IMG/VR virus record: IMGVR_UViG_2529292997_000008
Span: 1-38,707 of that record
Direction: 5' to 3' (one strand)
DNA from: a virus
Taxonomy: Duplodnaviria; Heunggongvirae; Uroviricota; Caudoviricetes
Length of the DNA stretch: 38,707 bases
A program made the position numbers and the translations under genes. Positions 6,030-38,707 of the stretch are shown piece after piece. A model generated the notes under the pieces. That model was not told the origin of the DNA. It saw nothing but the letters and a program-made list of their open reading frames with translations, and did no database searches. Each line of letters begins with the position of its first letter. The first letter of the stretch is position 1.

Positions 6030-6677
6030 ATGAAAACAAAATGGTATGACTTAGCAAAGCAGCTCATGCGGGCGCAGGGCATGAGCCAGGATTCGCTCGC
6101 GGATCGTATGGGGATAACTAAAGGCGGCCTGTCACACTGGCTGAACGGTCGCCGAGAGCCAAATCTTGAAGATATTGCGCGGATTATGCGCGAGCTTGGT
6201 CGTCGGCAGTTTACTGTTACACATGATGGCATGGTCATTGATGATTCTGTTTCTAATACACTTCAGGCCGTGCCGCCGCGTGATTTAGGTAGTTACCCGG
6301 TTATTGACTGGAAGGACACAGTAAACAATATGGATGACGCAAGGCGTTCAGCATTACGACACGTTACGACTAGCGTTATTTGTTCAGATGACAGTTACTG
6401 GCTGGTTGCCAAAGGTGAATCAATGAACGCGCCGCAGGGGTTGAGCATCCCGGCGGGGACGATGATACTTGTGGACCCGCACGCGCCAGCTATTGACGGC
6501 AAACTGGTTATAGCCCAGCTTGAGGAAGGGCAGATACCGACGTTTAAACAGTTGATTATTGATGGAGGTCAAAGGCTTTTACGTTCGCTCAATCCGCTGT
6601 ATCCGCCAATCCCTATGAATCCAGAATCAAAAATTATAGGCGTGGTGGTTGATGCGAAGATCGTAAACCTGCCATAA
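6030..6677 (+). CDS. CI-type prophage repressor (HTH-XRE N-domain, LexA-like S24 peptidase C-domain)
   Basis: 215 aa; HTH QDSLADRMGITKGGLSHWLNGRR; C-domain with GESM serine motif and downstream Lys-containing segment; GAGG RBS. Confidence 0.85.
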   Translation: MKTKWYDLAKQLMRAQGMSQDSLADRMGITKGGLSHWLNGRREPNLEDIARIMRELGRRQFTVTHDGMVIDDSVSNTLQAVPPRDLGSYPVIDWKDTVNNMDDARRSALRHVTTSVICSDDSYWLVAKGESMNAPQGLSIPAGTMILVDPHAPAIDGKLVIAQLEEGQIPTFKQLIIDGGQRLLRSLNPLYPPIPMNPESKIIGVVVDAKIVNLP

Positions 6678-6708: not shown

Positions 6709-6800
6709 CCTGGGAAACACCAAAACGTAAACAGAAAACGTTATTTATTATTTAAATATCAATGGCATATAAAATATTTTAAAAAAGTATACAAAATGGA

Positions 6801-6829
6801 TTGACTCGATGTTTTACGGGGCGTATATT
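6801..6829 (+). promoter_or_regulatory. sigma70-like promoter (PL-analogue) driving rightward early operon
   Basis: TTGACT-17 nt-TATATT; TACAAAATGGA motif immediately upstream (6790-6800). Confidence 0.5.
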
Positions 6830-7177: not shown

Positions 7178-7468
7178 ATGAGCGTTACAATTATATATGG
7201 TAAATGTGATAGCAAAATGAATGCCAGGGAACGCAGAAGGATAAAAAGAGAAAACGAAAGAAAATCATCACCTGCAATCAATAAAACAGACAATGTGGAT
7301 AAAGCTATTCGATTTGCAAACGAGGAAAGATGCAAACCAAATAGCATTAAAGAACGTCGCAAAGGATCAGTAAAATGGTATACGGAAAATGAAAGCGGCA
7401 GCTACTACCACGCAACGCAACCACGCCATTTAGGGGAAAAACCCCTGGATAAAGTCCGCTACCATTAA
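7178..7468 (+). CDS. N-like transcription antiterminator candidate (arginine-rich motif protein)
   Basis: 96 aa, basic; N-proximal ARM NARERRRIKRENERK; first gene after PL-like promoter and nut-like site. Confidence 0.5.
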   Translation: MSVTIIYGKCDSKMNARERRRIKRENERKSSPAINKTDNVDKAIRFANEERCKPNSIKERRKGSVKWYTENESGSYYHATQPRHLGEKPLDKVRYH

Positions 7469-13657: not shown

Positions 13658-14418
13658 GTGGGCTTAGAAATTGGGTGGTGTGGTCGCTGTACGACGGCAG
13701 CGGGTACGCCGTTAAAGATTGGGCCGACGCTGGCTATAAGTGTTATTGTTTCAATTATGACGGCGCTAATCATGGCGATTATGAAGGCGTCAAGATCATT
13801 CATCCTAACATTGAATATGTCAACGTATGGATTGACAGCCATTTCCTGGTAATGTTCTCCCCTGAATTGTCTGTTTATCCAGATCCTGACATTATCCTGG
13901 GCTTTCCTCCGTGCGACGATCTTGCGGTGTCCGGCGCTCGTTGGTTTTCAAGCAAGCGTGAAAAAGATCCTTACTTCCAGCAGAAGGCGGCATACAACGC
14001 AAAACTGGTAGAAACGCTTGCTGACATGTACCACGTCCCGTGGATGGTGGAAAACCCGGTTGGAGCACTGTCAACGTTATGGCGTAAGCCGGATTTCATT
14101 TTTAATCCGTGCGCTTACGGTGGCTACCTGCCGGAAGATGATAAGCATCCAGCTTTCCCGGAATACATCGCCGACCGCGACGCCTACACGAAGAAAACTT
14201 GTATCTGGTGCGGCAACGGATTTAAACAGCCGCTATTTCGGCCTGTACCAATGCCTGATGAGTGGGAAGATAGTAAGCAGCACGCGAAGTTAGGCTGGAA
14301 GTCGAAGCGCACTAAGATGATCCGCTCACTCACGCCGCGAGGATTCGCCCGTGCTGTATTCCTGGCTAATGACCGGGCAATCACGCGGACTACTCTTAAC
14401 CGCGTTTTACCGGATTGA
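13654..14418 (+). CDS. compact C5-cytosine methyltransferase-like protein with PCD variant of motif IV
   Basis: 254 aa; motif I-like LYDGSGYA, motif IV GFPPCDD (PC then D instead of Q), motif VI MVENPVG; ATGA overlap with upstream gene. Confidence 0.55.
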   Translation: MSGLRNWVVWSLYDGSGYAVKDWADAGYKCYCFNYDGANHGDYEGVKIIHPNIEYVNVWIDSHFLVMFSPELSVYPDPDIILGFPPCDDLAVSGARWFSSKREKDPYFQQKAAYNAKLVETLADMYHVPWMVENPVGALSTLWRKPDFIFNPCAYGGYLPEDDKHPAFPEYIADRDAYTKKTCIWCGNGFKQPLFRPVPMPDEWEDSKQHAKLGWKSKRTKMIRSLTPRGFARAVFLANDRAITRTTLNRVLPD

Positions 14419-14440
14419 TGTTTACAAAATGGCGTCATTG

Positions 14441-14456
14441 TGTGATGCGGATCACA
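14441..14456. promoter_or_regulatory. CRP-type palindrome TGTGATGCGGATCACA
   Basis: Perfect TGTGA-N6-TCACA, lying between inverted TACAAAATGG motif copies in the 160-bp intergenic region. Confidence 0.4.
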
Positions 14457-14578
14457 TAATGGCGCTTTATTGTTTGTTCGCATGTATCCGTTTTGTATAC
14501 TTCAAACAAACAAAATGCTCTTTAAAAATCCGGTAACGCTGAAATGCGTAAAAATCACCTGAAAAAGGAGAGAGCATT

Positions 14579-14755
14579 ATGTCTTTTGAGAATTACCAAT
14601 GGCATGACGACTATGAACGGGAAAGTGTCATGCGTGCAATGTGCAGTGTATGCAGCACGAAGAAGGGAGAATGTAACGAGTGCAACGAATGCGTAGATCG
14701 CTTGCTAAGGGCTGGACACGCCGAAAGGCTGAACGAAACAGAGAATCAAGAATAA
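14579..14755 (+). CDS. small Cys-rich protein (58 aa)
   Basis: AAGGAGAGAG RBS; CSVCS and CNECNEC motifs; overlaps ninG start region. Confidence 0.35.
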   Translation: MSFENYQWHDDYERESVMRAMCSVCSTKKGECNECNECVDRLLRAGHAERLNETENQE

Positions 14756-19716: not shown

Positions 19717-19732
19717 TGTGATCTGTATCACA
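19717..19732. promoter_or_regulatory. CRP-type palindrome TGTGATCTGTATCACA
   Basis: Perfect TGTGA-N6-TCACA, flanked by AAA and A, close to the idealised CRP site; intergenic. Confidence 0.45.
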
Positions 19733-19735
19733 ATG

Positions 19736-19776
19736 TATACGAAATGGCATTGTTTCGACAGTGCCATTTTGTTATA
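19736..19776 (+). promoter_or_regulatory. inverted TACAAAATGG-type motif pair enclosing a sigma70-like promoter
   Basis: TATACGAAATGG-16 nt-CCATTTTGTTATA; TTGTTT-17-TATATA promoter inside; same architecture as 36082-36121. Confidence 0.4.
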
Positions 19777-19811
19777 TATAAGCCACGGAAAGACGGAGGG
19801 GAGGCAAGAAG

Positions 19812-33766: not shown

Positions 33767-34243
33767 ATGTCTCAGACTTGCGAAAAAGGCACGTTTACAG
33801 GCCGTGACGTTGCTGTATTCTTCGCTATCGCTTGTCCAAATGCGAAGCCGGAAGCTGAAGCGTACAAAGCGTTAGGCATGATGCGTGGTAAAACACTTTC
33901 CGTTGAATGGGAAACCGCTGACGCCACCGCCGATAAATCAGCCGATTACACGAAAGAATCAATGGTTACTTACAAATCCGTTTCTTTCTCCGGCGACGGT
34001 GTGTCCCGCACTGAAGAAATCCATAATCAGAAAGCGCTGAAACGCCACGTAATTACGCCAGGTGAAACCACCGGATCACAACCTTATGTATGGCTGAAGA
34101 TCGTTTCTCCTGTAGACGTAACTGAAGGCCCATTCCTTTGCACTTCCTTTAAAGAAGAAGATCCGCATGATGATGTTTCCACCTGGTCTATTGAGTGCGA
34201 AAGCGCTGGCAAGGTAACGGTAGGCGACGTTCCGCCAGCATAA
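33767..34243 (+). CDS. major tail (tube) protein candidate
   Basis: 158 aa; followed by terminator hairpin; upstream of chaperone-position gene and tape measure. Confidence 0.5.
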   Translation: MSQTCEKGTFTGRDVAVFFAIACPNAKPEAEAYKALGMMRGKTLSVEWETADATADKSADYTKESMVTYKSVSFSGDGVSRTEEIHNQKALKRHVITPGETTGSQPYVWLKIVSPVDVTEGPFLCTSFKEEDPHDDVSTWSIECESAGKVTVGDVPPA

Positions 34244-34261
34244 CAGCCAATATTAACAATC

Positions 34262-34286
34262 GGGGCCATTTGGCCCCTTTTCTTTT
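34262..34286 (+). terminator. rho-independent terminator after major tail gene
   Basis: GGGGCC-ATTT-GGCCCC hairpin followed by TTTTCTTTT. Confidence 0.65.
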
Positions 34287-34298
34287 AAGGTGAATACT

Positions 34299-34997
34299 AT
34301 GATCCATGTTCGTACAGGACAATTTGCTGCCGTGGTGAACGGTAAGCGCTATGAGTTTAATCCTTGCTTTGCTGCGATGGCTAAAATCGGCAACGATAGT
34401 GAGCTTGTCGAATATTTCGCACTTATCCACGGCGGCAAATATCCATCACGATTGCCAGCAGATCCAGACCTACGCAATCGCATTCTGGCGCGGTGTTATG
34501 GTGAAATAGTTCAGACATCAATGCACATCCTGAAATGTTGCTCAGACGACGAAATAGGCCCGTTATTGGGCGAATGCTGGTTTACTCCTTCGGGTAAGTT
34601 AAAGTTAAAGCCCGGATTAATGCCGATCGAGGATATCATCACGCTTGCGCAGCACTGCATGTACCACGGTCTTATTGGTGATGGCCCGGAAGAAGAGTCC
34701 GGGGAAATTCCGGAAGGGGAATATAAGCCGACTTTTAACGTCCTTGAATTCGTCTATTCTGCCGTTGCTCACCTGGGCTTGTCAGAATCGGAAGCATGGA
34801 ATATGACAATGACCGGATATAGGGCCGCTGTACGCGCTAAAACGCCGCCAGACGAAAGAAACGAGAAAAGCAAGCCAAACATTCACATAAATAAACGTGC
34901 TTATGACGAGCAAATGGAGGCCGCTAAAAAGGCACTAGAAAGAATGAAAAATCGTGAGCAAGAAAAGCCCGGTAGATCCGGGCGTTTTGCTAATTGA
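34299..34997 (+). CDS. tail assembly chaperone-position protein
   Basis: Trimmed to ATG after AAGGTGA (track start is GTG); last + gene before tape measure. Confidence 0.4.
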   Translation: MIHVRTGQFAAVVNGKRYEFNPCFAAMAKIGNDSELVEYFALIHGGKYPSRLPADPDLRNRILARCYGEIVQTSMHILKCCSDDEIGPLLGECWFTPSGKLKLKPGLMPIEDIITLAQHCMYHGLIGDGPEEESGEIPEGEYKPTFNVLEFVYSAVAHLGLSESEAWNMTMTGYRAAVRAKTPPDERNEKSKPNIHINKRAYDEQMEAAKKALERMKNREQEKPGRSGRFAN

Positions 34998-35364
34998 AAT
35001 CTTTAATTGCTGTACCTGGTGAACTGTGTGTGATTGTATTGTATACAGACTTTGCCTTACTGCGATCTTTCCATTCTTTTAGGATGCAGTTATCAAACTT
35101 TGCGATAACCCTTGAAGGGGATAATTCTTCAACATCCATGTAAGTAAATCCTATCGTGCTGGTTACTGAATACCATACGTGATAACTATAATTACCGTCA
35201 TGCTCGATTCTTTGTGGTTCCCCCATTATTTTATTCACTTGCTCACAAGTCATTCCAACTTGCAAATTTTTATCAGCTAACTTAACGAAATCAGTTGATC
35301 TTGCGCACCCTGTAAGAGCTAAAGCCATAACACCAATGAGAACCGCTTTGATTATTTTTTTCAT
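34990..35364 (-). CDS. moron lipoprotein with BamE/SmpA-OmlA-like motif
   Basis: 124 aa; signal peptide plus lipobox LTGC; GMTCEQVNKIMGEP resembles BamE motif; opposite strand inside tail module. Confidence 0.7.
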   Translation of the reverse strand: MKKIIKAVLIGVMALALTGCARSTDFVKLADKNLQVGMTCEQVNKIMGEPQRIEHDGNYSYHVWYSVTSTIGFTYMDVEELSPSRVIAKFDNCILKEWKDRSKAKSVYNTITHSSPGTAIKDFN

Positions 35365-35374
35365 GATTTACCCC

Positions 35375-36034
35375 TTAATTCCAGTTGCAAGCGTTTTTCA
35401 CTTTGTCGATGTGGTTATAAAGACCATCAATGTTAAACACTGCTTTCTCAATGTCGCCAGCTTCCGGCACTACTTCAATGATGAATTGTTTTTCGTTAAC
35501 CAGTTTTTTAATCATTGGGATGGCTTTTTTGCCGTCCCATAATCCAAGAGCTTTATAATTAGTTGACCGCCACCACTCAGTAGCTACAGCTTTGTGAACG
35601 CCGATCCGGTAGTTAATATAAGTAGTGTCCCCGGCGTCAGTTACATGGTGTGACCATGCTACGAACATTTTTGTTTTATTACCCTGGCAAGCGATTGTTA
35701 ATACCGGTTTATTCTTATCCTGTGCCTTCAGTGTCGGGAAAGCATCAAGACTTCCGCTGAATTGTTCTGCTTTCACAAAAAGGAATACGTTTTTTGCGTC
35801 CTGCATATCATCTTTTCTTTCAACTACAAGCCACTGTTTACCAGCATTTTCTTTTTCTAACTGTGCATCGTATGCGGCTTGTTTTGCTTGTTGTTCTGCA
35901 AGCCATTTAGCATTTTTCTCTGCTAATGCTTGTTGCTCTTGATTGGTCACTATAGGCGCTTTTTCATTATCCTCATTGCAACCAACCAGACCCAATACCG
36001 CCGCAATCATTGCCACTTTTGCTAACCGTTTCAT
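35375..36034 (-). CDS. moron lipoprotein (219 aa)
   Basis: Signal peptide plus lipobox LVGC; Gln/Ala/Lys-rich linker; GGTGGG RBS; own promoter at 36082-36121. Confidence 0.7.
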   Translation of the reverse strand: MKRLAKVAMIAAVLGLVGCNEDNEKAPIVTNQEQQALAEKNAKWLAEQQAKQAAYDAQLEKENAGKQWLVVERKDDMQDAKNVFLFVKAEQFSGSLDAFPTLKAQDKNKPVLTIACQGNKTKMFVAWSHHVTDAGDTTYINYRIGVHKAVATEWWRSTNYKALGLWDGKKAIPMIKKLVNEKQFIIEVVPEAGDIEKAVFNIDGLYNHIDKVKNACNWN

Positions 36035-36081
36035 AACCCACCACGCTAACTTGATTTACTGACCATTCCCTTTAGCTTCCT

Positions 36082-36121
36082 TATACAAAATGGAGTCGTT
36101 GAAGTAAAGCCATTTTGTATA
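36082..36121. promoter_or_regulatory. 40-bp inverted TACAAAATGG motif pair with divergent promoters
   Basis: TATACAAAATGG-16 nt-CCATTTTGTATA; minus-strand TTTACT-17-TATAAG inside; plus-strand TGTATAAAAT extended -10-like element. Confidence 0.5.
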
Positions 36122-36161
36122 AAATAGATACACAGATCACATTTTTGCATGAGGTTAAATC

Positions 36162-38504
36162 ATGGCTACCAGTGTAGGTACAATTTATTACGAAGTTGAT
36201 GCGAAAACTGGTCAACTTCTCGTTGCACAACGACAGGCAGACCAGGCCTTTGATCGTATAGAGCGCGGCGCAAAACAGGCTGACCGCCAGGTAAACACCC
36301 TGAAAACATCCATCAAGGCACTGACCAGGGTTATCCATCTGCTAATTGCTGCGGAGGCTGTGCGCCAATTTATGGATATGGCGGAGCAAGCAAAAATGCT
36401 TCGCGTAAAAATCAAAATGCTTACGGGCGATGCGGAGTCCGCCGGACGGGTTTTCGACGGCCTGAAAGCAATATCCAGGGAGACGGGGCAGAGCCTGAAA
36501 GATACTGGCGAATTATGGCAAGGCCTGGCTATCTCACTAAAAAACACCTCCGCTACGGAAGGGCAATTGCTTAACCTGGTTGGCACTATTCAGAAAATGG
36601 GTGCATTAGGCGGCGCGTCAGCGGAACAGATGTCTAACTCAATGCGTCAATTCCGTCAGTCTATCGACGGCGGTGTTCTTCGTGCCGAAGAATTTAACAG
36701 CCTGCTTGAAAATACGCCGACCATCGTACAAACAATGGCCCGCCATATGGGATTATCAATGGGCCAGTTCCGCGCCGAAATGCTGGACGGCAAGATCACG
36801 GCTGAAAGGATGGTTAACGCAATACAGGCGGCTACGCAGGAAACAAACGATAAGTTTGCTCAGTTGCCGCGCACATCCGGCATGGCTATCAATGAGCTTA
36901 AAGTAGAAATTATGGGCCTTGTTGAGCAGTTGGATGATCTTTTTGGCGTGTCAGATGGCGTTGTTTCAGCTATCGACTTGATCACGAAAGGCGTTAAAGG
37001 GCTTGGCGATGGCGCTAAATTCGCTAAAACCTGCTTCGACACACTCAAAACGGCTGGTAGCGAATTTATCGACATGTTTGATGATGTGGCTGTTAAGGCT
37101 GGAGAGGTGGCAGAGAAGATCATCGCAATGGTGACGCCAATCAAGGCGCTAATGGATGGCTATAAATGGATGAAGGAGGTAGTAGGAGAGCAAACCGACG
37201 AATATAACAGCAACTACGAGAAGAAATACGGGAAGACCGTTGGCAAGGTCATGCAACTACAGGATGATCTGACCGCAGCAATCCAGGCTACAGAAGAAGC
37301 AAGGAAAAATGAACAGAATGCTGCCAATGACGGAGCGATTACCGGATTCGACAAGCCAGTAGACAAGCCGAAAAAACAGAAAAAAGAGAAGAAATCGGAA
37401 GCTGATCGGCTTGGTGACAAAGGTATAAGCGTTTCTGATCAGTACAACAAAGACGCCGCCGCCATGCGCAAAGCGTTGGAGAACGGCAAGGCCATTGATG
37501 CTGCATTTGCCCAGGGTAAAATCACGCTCCTTGAGTACCGCGCCGCGCAAAAAGGGATCGGCAAGGAACTGAAAGAAGAATTAGCACAAATTCCGGTAGA
37601 TGAATTGCGTGATAAATGGTCACAAATAGTAAGCCCGATGGATCAGCTAAAAGGCGAAGTTGACCCCATCCAGCAGGCGCAAAATGAATGGGCCATCCGT
37701 AAGCAAATGCTTATAGACCTGGGCGCTACTGAAGCGCAACAGAAACAGGAATTGTTAGCCTATGAGCAACAGATCCGCGATCTGAAATGGGAACAATGGC
37801 AGGCGCAAAGCGACACAAACGGCCTTATCGGTGATTGTGTTAATGGCCTTAAAGGCGGAATGAGTAATGCGCTTGTTGGCCTGTTAAACGGCACTCAATC
37901 ATTGAGTGATGTTTTTGCTAACTTAGGAAGCAATATACTCGGCAATATCGGTAACAGACTCTCAGACATAGCTGCAAACTGGATAGCAGATCAGATCATG
38001 ATGGAGACACAAAGCAAGGCCACGCAAACAAGTACAACAGCAAGCGCGGTAGCAGCTCAGGGAAGCATTGCTGCGGCGGCGGCCCCAGCAGCGGCGGCAA
38101 CTGCGGCGTCAACTGGCGGTAGCTGGGCGGCGGCTGGTTCGGCGGCGCTCACTGCGATCATGTCGCTGGCTACGTCAATTTTCGGCGGCGGTCGCTTTAA
38201 TGGTGGTAGCGTCATTGGTGGTAATATGTACCGCGTAGGGGAACACAACAGGCCGGAGCTATTCCAGACATCTAACGGCAATCAATATATGATCCCTGGC
38301 GAGAACGGCAGAGTTATTCCGGGCCGTGATATTGGCGGCGGTGGCGGTATTAGTATGCCTGTCAGTATCAGCATTCAGACCACGAACGGATTCAGCGACG
38401 AAGACAGCCGCAGACTTGAATTAACAATGGAACGTGTAGCCATGAAAATGATAACAAGGGAATCTCAAAGACCAGGCGGAATGTTGCAACCTCGCCGCAA
38501 ATAA
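36162..38504 (+). CDS. tail tape measure protein
   Basis: 780 aa; long helical Ala/Gln/Glu-rich protein, Gly-rich C-terminal region, in tail module. Confidence 0.8.
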   Translation: MATSVGTIYYEVDAKTGQLLVAQRQADQAFDRIERGAKQADRQVNTLKTSIKALTRVIHLLIAAEAVRQFMDMAEQAKMLRVKIKMLTGDAESAGRVFDGLKAISRETGQSLKDTGELWQGLAISLKNTSATEGQLLNLVGTIQKMGALGGASAEQMSNSMRQFRQSIDGGVLRAEEFNSLLENTPTIVQTMARHMGLSMGQFRAEMLDGKITAERMVNAIQAATQETNDKFAQLPRTSGMAINELKVEIMGLVEQLDDLFGVSDGVVSAIDLITKGVKGLGDGAKFAKTCFDTLKTAGSEFIDMFDDVAVKAGEVAEKIIAMVTPIKALMDGYKWMKEVVGEQTDEYNSNYEKKYGKTVGKVMQLQDDLTAAIQATEEARKNEQNAANDGAITGFDKPVDKPKKQKKEKKSEADRLGDKGISVSDQYNKDAAAMRKALENGKAIDAAFAQGKITLLEYRAAQKGIGKELKEELAQIPVDELRDKWSQIVSPMDQLKGEVDPIQQAQNEWAIRKQMLIDLGATEAQQKQELLAYEQQIRDLKWEQWQAQSDTNGLIGDCVNGLKGGMSNALVGLLNGTQSLSDVFANLGSNILGNIGNRLSDIAANWIADQIMMETQSKATQTSTTASAVAAQGSIAAAAAPAAAATAASTGGSWAAAGSAALTAIMSLATSIFGGGRFNGGSVIGGNMYRVGEHNRPELFQTSNGNQYMIPGENGRVIPGRDIGGGGGISMPVSISIQTTNGFSDEDSRRLELTMERVAMKMITRESQRPGGMLQPRRK

Positions 38505-38568: not shown

Positions 38569-38707
38569 TTCCGGAAAGCTTTCAGCTTTAAGCCAGTTAT
38601 TAAAACCCCTTTTGATTTGTTAAAACACCTTGCGGTCTGGCAACTGCAAGTGTCAAACAAGAAATCAAAAGGGGGTCCCAATGGGGAACGAAAAGAGCTT
38701 AGCGCAC

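Follow-up and report, generated by a model that had tools for sequence, protein, structure and literature searches.

The present analysis concerns a cassette of two lipoprotein genes that interrupts the tail operon of a phage sequence, IMG/VR record IMGVR_UViG_2529292997_000008. The whole stretch of DNA that was analysed, 38,707 nt in length, is referred to here as the window. Both genes lie on the minus strand within a plus-strand tail operon, ahead of the tape measure gene, as an earlier first-pass annotation of this DNA had described, and their open reading frames (ORFs) were confirmed by coordinates and by the ratio of nonsynonymous to synonymous substitution (dN/dS). When compared with orthologues this ratio was 0.18-0.25 for the gene of the 219-aa protein and 0.07-0.10 for that of the 124-aa protein, a sign of purifying selection, and therefore both genes are taken to be real. 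The features of the locus are as follows.

35375..36034, minus strand: gene for a 219-aa predicted VasI/TagO-domain lipoprotein (ORF, PF11319).
34990..35364, minus strand: gene for a 124-aa lipoprotein of predicted BamE/OsmE/BLIP-type fold (ORF, fold match).
34967-34983: GC-rich hairpin GCCCGGTAGATCCGGGC with T-runs on both strands (terminator scan, both strands).
36035..36080, minus strand: leader with the Shine-Dalgarno-like sequence GGTGGG (alignment of six different first-cargo genes).
36081-36093 and 36110-36122: inverted repeat TTATACAAAATGG-N16-CCATTTTGTATAA, with arms complementary at 13 of 13 positions.
34290..34997, plus strand: DUF6246 gene, left flank (PF19759 at 2.2e-54).
33767..34243: tail tube gene, before the DUF6246 gene (family searches).
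36162..38504, plus strand: tape measure protein gene, right flank (PF20155 at 1.1e-49; phrog_1538 at 2e-159).

The two cassette genes are separated by 10 nt and each is preceded by a Shine-Dalgarno-like sequence, GGTGGG for the 219-aa gene and AAGGGG for the 124-aa gene. The DUF6246 gene occupies the position of the siphophage tail assembly chaperone, and a chaperone role would be assigned to it by this position only.

Both products are lipoproteins with signal peptides, and the lipoboxes named in the first-pass annotation, LVGC and LTGC, were found in their N-termini. The 219-aa protein begins with MKRLAKVAMIAAVLGLVGC followed by N, in which a charged n-region and a hydrophobic stretch lead to the lipobox LVGC with Cys19 and to Asn at +2; the 124-aa protein begins with MKKIIKAVLIGVMALALTGC followed by A, with a charged n-region, a hydrophobic stretch, the lipobox LTGC, Cys20 and Ala at +2. 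Both have the n-region, the h-region and a lipobox of the form [LVI][ASTVI][GAS]C within about 35 residues, and homologues of both retain the lipobox and a cysteine pair in the mature part. By the Lol sorting rule of Escherichia coli, lipoproteins without Asp at +2 are directed to the outer membrane. Since the +2 residues here are Asn and Ala, both proteins are predicted to be anchored in the outer membrane, facing the periplasm.

As judged from its sequence, the 219-aa protein is a VasI/TagO-domain lipoprotein, an identity that the first-pass annotation had overlooked. It belongs to the VasI family by its match to PF11319 (VasI/TagO), which covers residues 55-218 at 58.1 bits against a gathering score of 26.5, and PGAP names it TagO. 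A predicted helix at residues 31-63 is followed by a beta-sandwich which was found to be IalB-like in the fold search; Cys116 and Cys216 are conserved, and the cysteine pair of the family, CxxNxT...ACxW, is kept as IACQGNKT...NACNW. Close relatives of the protein are few and all of them lie within one phage group, mEpimmI. The wider VasI domain family is large (1,879 relatives in a profile search), and most of its members carry a different N-terminal module. VasI-like genes are also cargo in P2-like, Klebsiella, Pasteurella, Brucella and Labrenzia phages. With the VasI/TagO proteins (PF11319, TIGR03360; VCA0118) the phage protein shares the domain, the conserved cysteine pair and export from the cytoplasm. 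It differs from them in being a lipoprotein, in having a Gln/Ala/Lys-rich helical stalk which replaces the N-terminal Cys-x(n)-RLxCYD module of the family, and in its place outside type VI secretion clusters. Phage tail genes, and no type VI cluster, adjoin the 219-aa gene in every locus examined, and the protein reaches 47.4 bits against TIGR03360, whose equivalog cut-off is 124.2 bits. The 'TagO' of a paper on enterohaemorrhagic E. coli was set aside as a candidate for the same gene, as that paper treats a chromosomal type VI gene.

The 124-aa protein matches phrog_18614, a family of unassigned function, and has conserved Cys40 and Cys93. It had been said to carry a BamE/SmpA-OmlA-like motif. 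This description held at the level of the fold, as the alpha-alpha-beta-beta-beta arrangement of the BamE type was found in the protein and its top structural match was OsmE, and failed at the level of the family. PF04355 (SmpA_OmlA) was missed at 18.9 bits against 23.2, over residues 33-51 only, the OsmE model NF008423 at 17.8 against 65, and all matches to BamE, OsmE and DUF7738 were below threshold. Thus, the protein differs from the BamE/OsmE/BLIP group in lying under every family cut-off and in having an extra C-terminal tail and the Cys40/Cys93 pair. A fold of the BamE/OsmE/BLIP type often serves protein binding. A sequence search of the PDB gave no match with either protein, and a fold search of BFVD with the small lipoprotein gave only weak matches to unnamed phage lipoproteins, with no Cor, Llp or Bor among them.

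The window shows 81-87% DNA identity to mEp021, mEp554, mEp010, mEp044, mEp013, mEp515 and MagusPhagus, and its CI-type repressor (6030..6677) is 94% identical to Rep021. These two features place the window in the mEpimmI group (PMC11893012), and on sequence grounds it is regarded as an mEp021-like (mEpimmI) E. coli prophage. An annotated prophage of strain 2017C-4173W12 is almost identical to the window between 34.5 and 37.5 kb; the likeness extends in a looser form from about 33 kb to the window's end, and the upstream part of the prophage is different. This close copy is integrated at abgT, which has been given as an integration site of the mEpimmI group (PMC11893012). In 14 of 5,426 complete E. 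coli genomes the cassette itself was found, with at least 80% of its length covered at 96-100% identity, every copy being chromosomal. The mEpimmI phages have been reported to be prevalent in human gut samples (PMC11893012).

Identity of the window to the mEp021-type relatives is interrupted exactly across the two genes. This is the behaviour of a moron, and the cassette is a typical one, lying in the chaperone/tape-measure slot of an mEpimmI prophage. The earlier call of a moron was borne out by the opposite strand, the AT-richness, the hairpin terminator and the alternative cargo found in relatives. Three of the features named in the definition of Hendrix and Juhala are present, while for a fourth, a promoter of its own with expression from the repressed prophage, there is only a weak sigma-70 candidate at background level. 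Extra or differently filled DNA lies between the same neighbouring genes in mEp021, MagusPhagus, mEp013, L005, L007/8, L057 and 42 IMG/VR contigs; the base composition is deviant, with a GC fraction of 0.37-0.43 over 34990-36160 against 0.47-0.52 in the flanks; and the cassette has a terminator of its own. This terminator, which is also the left-hand boundary, is the hairpin at 34967-34983. It lies within the 3' end of the DUF6246 gene and 7 nt beyond the stop of the 124-aa gene, it folds as RNA at -15.5 kcal/mol (z -3.7), and the annotations of mEp021 and mEp013 place a terminator at the equivalent position.

The right-hand boundary is of a different kind. An alignment of 35985-36080 with the corresponding parts of L001, L002, L005, L007 and L057 revealed that unrelated first-position cargo genes are alike in the 5' leader, in the ribosome-binding site and over roughly the first 15 signal-peptide codons (MKRLAKV...), and that the likeness stops at the signal-peptide cleavage region. 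The leader together with these codons appears to be the right-hand recombination joint of the cassette. Since unrelated cargo genes share this start, it is evidently the mature domains that are exchanged, each being joined to the common beginning.

The contents of the slot vary widely. Relatives replace the cassette with at least eight other cargo combinations, and nearly all of the cargo is envelope-targeted, in the form of Sec-secreted, lipoprotein or membrane proteins. It was found that mEp021 and MagusPhagus carry a 138/139-aa Sec-secreted protein with a mini-ORF, L005 a lone 203-aa VasI-like homologue, L007 and L008 a 129-aa secreted protein with a 127-aa homologue of the small lipoprotein, mEp013 a 59-aa membrane protein with the small (124-aa) lipoprotein, and L057, which has the same architecture but ends short of the immunity region, a 119-aa secreted protein. 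When IMG/VR was scanned for the junction repeat, 42 contigs, mostly of about 52-57 kb, were recovered, and their slots hold at least six types of cargo in first position and four in second, which combine freely. The pair 219+124 occurs in 8 sequences and the pair 219+106 in 4, with a fifth locus truncated behind the 219-aa gene, and further arrangements are the 203-aa VasI-like gene alone (L005), 138+124, 129+127 and 59+124 (mEp013). It follows from this free combination that the two genes assort independently; they are independent modules and not an obligate pair. Six alternative cargo proteins gave no informative family in Pfam and PHROGs, and PADLOC gave no match for the two cassette proteins or for the slot proteins of mEp021 and MagusPhagus.

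Neither the tape measure nor the receptor-binding gene dictates what the slot holds. VasI-like cargo was found with both the 780-aa and the 957-aa tape measure, and the 780-aa type with at least three cargoes. VasI plus small-lipoprotein cargo was found with at least three alleles of J/Lpp (GF66.2, MLI107, STEC306-308, as against the 2017C-4173W12 type), and in strain GN05505 the J/Lpp allele of 2017C-4173W12 is combined with other cargo in the slot.

At the right-hand end of the cassette stands the inverted repeat. An inverted motif had been described at 36082-36121; the motif is real, and these coordinates are one base off at each end. It had also been counted as a component of the moron, which does not agree with its distribution. 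The repeat is kept in mEp021, MagusPhagus, mEp013, L005, L007/8 and the 42 IMG/VR contigs irrespective of cargo, and it therefore belongs to the phage backbone and not to the moron. It consists of two face-to-face copies of a 13-nt motif, GT[AT]TACAAAATGG, which is dispersed through the phage. A CRP-type half-site, TGTGATC, lies 12 nt from the repeat (36135-36141).

The first-pass annotation had further placed within this repeat a promoter for the two lipoprotein genes and a restart promoter for the tape measure gene. Neither proposal was confirmed. Promoters were scored with a rough sigma-70 position weight matrix of our own, based on consensus frequencies; for stretches of 127 nt drawn at random from this phage the best score had a median of 6.2 and a 75th percentile of 7.7. 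Two candidates came under consideration.

36080..36108, minus strand: candidate cargo-directed sigma-70 promoter TTTACT-17-TATAAG, with matrix score 7.4, within background.
36099..36125, plus strand: candidate tape-measure-directed promoter TTGAAG-15-TAAAAT, with matrix score 10.7, at about the 96th percentile.

An automated sigma-70 scan found no promoter within the repeat. The cargo-directed hexamers (-35 in the loop of the repeat, -10 in its left arm) score at chance level, and it is their position alone that makes them plausible. On the minus strand nothing clearly better was found in about 850 nt upstream, where the top scores were 7.7 and 7.55. The layout of motif, 1 nt, -35, 17 nt and -10 recurs at the PR-like promoter of the phage and at junction J2 of the tail module. 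The tape-measure-directed candidate was missed by the automated scan because its spacer is 15 nt. In relatives it scores 6.9-10.7, with a conserved -10 and a -35 that is not conserved. In addition, a Q-type antiterminator is present in the group, and the tape measure gene could thus be expressed late without a restart promoter.

The dispersal of the motif is marked. With at most two mismatches, 12 sites were found in the window where 1.9 were expected, and the near-exact copies lie mostly between genes. This is true of 7-8 out of 10 in the window, although 87% of it is coding, and of 9 out of 10 in mEp021. The copies of the 13-mer and the promoter nearest to one of them are given below.

1812, 2953, 5944, 6787, 14420, 14488, 19735, 36081 and 36110: copies of the 13-mer in the window.
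24100, 24168, 25697 and 33138: copies of the 13-mer in L003.
6801-6829: strong PR-like promoter TTGACT-17-TATATT, downstream of the repressor gene and upstream of an Arg-rich N-like gene (7178..7468).

The copy at 6787 ends 1 nt ahead of the -35 of this PR-like promoter, and upstream of the repressor gene another copy overlaps with the -10 of a PL-like promoter. Copies also stand at each of the four junctions where the tail module changes strand, and one of these lies within the spacer of a promoter-like sequence upstream of the exclusion gene gp81. At the PR-like promoter, J1 and J2 the motif precedes the -35; at the PL-like promoter and J4 it lies in the spacer or the -10; and at J3 it is downstream of a strong promoter. 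Because of this variable placement relative to promoter-like hexamers a sigma-70 -10 or -35 element was rejected, and an operator fits better than a promoter element. The junction repeat is most likely a protein-binding, operator-like element. Two other candidates were considered. The boxA/boxB of a nut site was rejected, as a separate boxA-like sequence, TGCTCTTTAAAAA, follows the copy at 14488, and the motif was not matched by the consensus sequences of the host-factor sites considered (IHF, TyrR and CRP).

In its form the motif resembles the stoperators of cluster A mycobacteriophages (PMC9283540), which are likewise 13-nt asymmetric motifs present in many copies in short intergenic regions that include early promoters. 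The motif here is asymmetric, of about 13 nt, in many copies and enriched between genes. It differs from stoperators in orientation, which is mixed with respect to transcription (antisense at 1812 in the window and at 6062 and 16566 in mEp021). Moreover, the repressor of this phage is of the CI/LexA type and would be expected to bind symmetric sites; the operator is a putative one. The 2025 paper on the mEpimmI phages reports no operator sequences and does not describe the 13-nt motif (PMC11893012).

Some further observations concern the surroundings of the motif. The half-site TGTGATC adjoins several copies. At 14410-14580 of the window two copies flank a strong terminator hairpin (t4), the region folding at -37.9 kcal/mol; the boxA-like TGCTCTTTAAAAA (14516-14528) and a boxB-like CCTGAAAAAGG come after the terminator, and the region probably corresponds to nutR2 as known from mEp021. 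Another inverted pair of motifs occupies 19735-19777 and is predicted to form, as RNA, a 21-bp hairpin (-23.5 kcal/mol, z -5.4). Directly beside it, at 19717-19732, stands a perfect CRP-type palindrome, TGTGATCTGTATCACA. In a different phage type (L006, 5874-6000, Logan SRR8048118), a gene for a 54%-identical VasI-like lipoprotein is divergent from the DUF6246 and tape measure genes. The junction there has two direct repeats of ATCTACGTCAACA in place of the mEpimmI motif, which hints that each phage sets its own regulatory site at this point.

The best overall explanation of the locus, put forward tentatively and with less than even confidence, is that of a moron cassette of two envelope lipoproteins tied to the regulatory circuit of the phage. 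The same 13-nt motif accompanies both the early promoters and every change of strand in the tail module, and it is for this reason that expression of the cassette is proposed to be tied to that circuit. Leftward transcription would start in or beside 36081-36122 and end at the hairpin at 34967-34983, and the junction element could be serving as a pair of sites for a phage-encoded DNA-binding protein, beyond any function as a mere promoter. The products would be a VasI/IalB-type beta-sandwich on a helical stalk and a domain of the BamE/OsmE/BLIP type, both facing the periplasm.

As for the role of such proteins, the most likely one, though on balance doubtful, would be protection of the lysogen at the level of the envelope, directed at incoming phages while their DNA is being delivered through the periplasm. 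It is suggested because gp15 of HK97 holds the same slot. The gene 15 moron of HK97 (Juhala et al. 2000; Cumby et al. 2012; reviewed in PMC3594210) is the closest positional analogue of the cassette. Both lie between the chaperone position and the tape measure gene inside the tail operon, both are add-ons which are absent or replaced in relatives, and both have a deviant GC content, a terminator of their own and an envelope product. They differ in that gp15 is a single small YebO-like protein of the inner membrane, whereas the cassette encodes two predicted outer-membrane lipoproteins of unrelated families; in the many alternative cargoes of the mEpimmI slot; and in the exclusion phenotype, which has been shown for gp15 and is hypothetical for the cassette. 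Protection of this type would be distinct from the Cor/Llp-type blocking of the phage's own receptor.

Several points weigh against protection of the lysogen as the role of the cassette. No above-chance sigma-70 promoter directed toward the cargo was found by the automated scan or by our own matrix. Neither protein has homology to a characterised exclusion or defence protein; PADLOC returned none, and Pfam, PHROG and NCBIfam returned only families of unknown function. The uncoupling of cargo type from tape measure and J alleles means that there is no signal of co-inheritance with a specific target. Finally, the motif might be bound by the prophage repressor, in which case the cassette might be shut off in lysogens, and this would speak against protection.

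If protection of the lysogen is nevertheless the true role, two uncharacterised protein families would join the known prophage envelope defences, and the orphan VasI/TagO domain would receive its first function outside type VI clusters. The slot is a compact natural library of envelope-targeted cargo whose fixed boundaries ease mining, and the motif offers a direct handle on the control of cargo islands in mEpimmI phages. A lipoprotein moron is in itself of a familiar kind. Less expected by-products of the analysis were the dispersed 13-nt motif and the structure of the cassette, with its shared signal peptide.

Among the other explanations that have to be weighed, the one which survives best, though it is unlikely, is that of a conversion factor for host fitness or virulence, acting for instance in adhesion or invasion (IalB-like) or in envelope stress (OsmE/BamE-like) in the manner of Bor and Lom of lambda. 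The structural matches of the small protein are headed by OsmE, the cassette-carrying E. coli genomes are mostly human isolates, and VCA0118 has been proposed by its authors as a possible adhesin (PMC3166118). However, the folds are generic, IalB and OsmE are themselves without a defined mechanism, and the alternative cargo in the slot is equally uncharacterised.

A bolder and rather improbable extension of the favoured explanation makes two statements at once. The motif would be the dispersed operator of a single mEpimmI regulator which gates the early promoters and the four backwards-facing cargo islands of the tail, this cassette among them, and the VasI lipoprotein would represent a new class of prophage-borne periplasmic guard, directed at phage DNA delivery or at type VI effectors, that is spread through cassettes whose mature domains are swapped behind one leader and signal peptide. 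If true, this would amount to a stoperator-like, genome-wide control system in a coliphage.

The resemblance to Cor/Llp-like lipoproteins proposed in the first-pass annotation, by which the products would block the phage's own outer-membrane receptor and be expressed from a divergent promoter in the repeat, is quite improbable and fails on sequence, fold, size, position and coupling to J. The products are phage-encoded lipoproteins with a predicted place in the outer membrane, promoter-like hexamers are present in the repeat, and mEpimmI phages do employ lipoproteins for exclusion (PMC11893012). It should be noted here that the exclusion lipoprotein tested in this group is Lpp (mEp021 gp81), of 72 aa, encoded downstream of J (PMC11893012). 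Like the cassette proteins, Cor (phi80, N15, HK022, mEp167), Llp of T5 and the mEpimmI Lpp (mEp021 gp81, mEp010 gp116; PMC11893012) are phage lipoproteins with a lipobox, encoded on the opposite strand in the structural region. They are of about 60-80 aa and are encoded beside the receptor-binding gene, and the Lpp types of mEpimmI phages track receptor use; the cassette, in contrast, lies beside the tape measure gene and encodes larger proteins, 2-3 times the size of Lpp021 (72 aa). Searches of families, the PDB and viral folds linked neither protein to Cor, Llp or Bor, and no relationship to Lpp in sequence or fold was seen. The position that Cor would hold is occupied in this group by another gene downstream of J, a separate 81-aa ORF in L003 (32747..32992) whose mEp021 counterpart is gp81; a prophage with this cassette thus has a small ORF of its own there. 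The cassette neither adjoins the receptor-binding gene nor co-varies with it: its cargo accompanies at least three J/Lpp alleles, and in GN05505 other cargo accompanies the same J/Lpp allele. The cargo-directed hexamers are at background level.

Equally improbable, though beside host fitness it counts as a live rival, is an explanation based on type VI secretion, in which the VasI/TagO-like lipoprotein modulates the secretion system of the host or, together with the BLIP/BamE-fold lipoprotein, shields the periplasm from effectors as a mobile orphan immunity. The PF11319 domain with the cysteine pair of its family (CxxNxT...ACxW) is in favour of it, as is the recurrence of VasI-like cargo in unrelated temperate phages (P2-like, Klebsiella, Pasteurella, Brucella). 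In Vibrio cholerae VCA0118 was unneeded for Hcp secretion and required for full type VI killing (PMC3166118). Against this, the protein falls under the TIGR03360 equivalog cut-off (47 vs 124 bits), the neighbourhood is without type VI genes, the two genes assort independently, and a match to BtiO was no better than those to BamE, OsmE and BLIP, which points to a shared fold only. Moreover, the function of TagO/VasI is itself entered as 'Unknown' in a 2026 review (PMC13584744).

It is highly improbable that the inverted repeat acts as an RNA hairpin, for processing or stability, in the late tail transcript. In favour of it, either strand is predicted to form a stem of 13 bp (-13.5/-14.6 kcal/mol, z about -3), and the related hairpin at 19735-19777 is stronger (-23.5 kcal/mol). 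Against it, most copies of the motif are single and unable to form a hairpin, their orientation with respect to local transcription goes both ways, a U-tract is absent, and a search of Rfam over 34200-36400 at E<=1 gave no match.

Two minor observations were made elsewhere in the structural region. At the portal position of L003 (11861-13231) PGAP gives the name 'anti-CBASS protein Acb1 family protein', and the mEp021 counterpart by gene order is annotated as a portal protein; judged by gene order alone, the PGAP name is probably an artefact. In relatives four backwards-facing islands interrupt the tail module of the phage group, and the one that follows the cassette, directly after the tape measure gene (38591-38707, minus strand; 23602-24029 in L003), opens with a ParE-family toxin-like gene.

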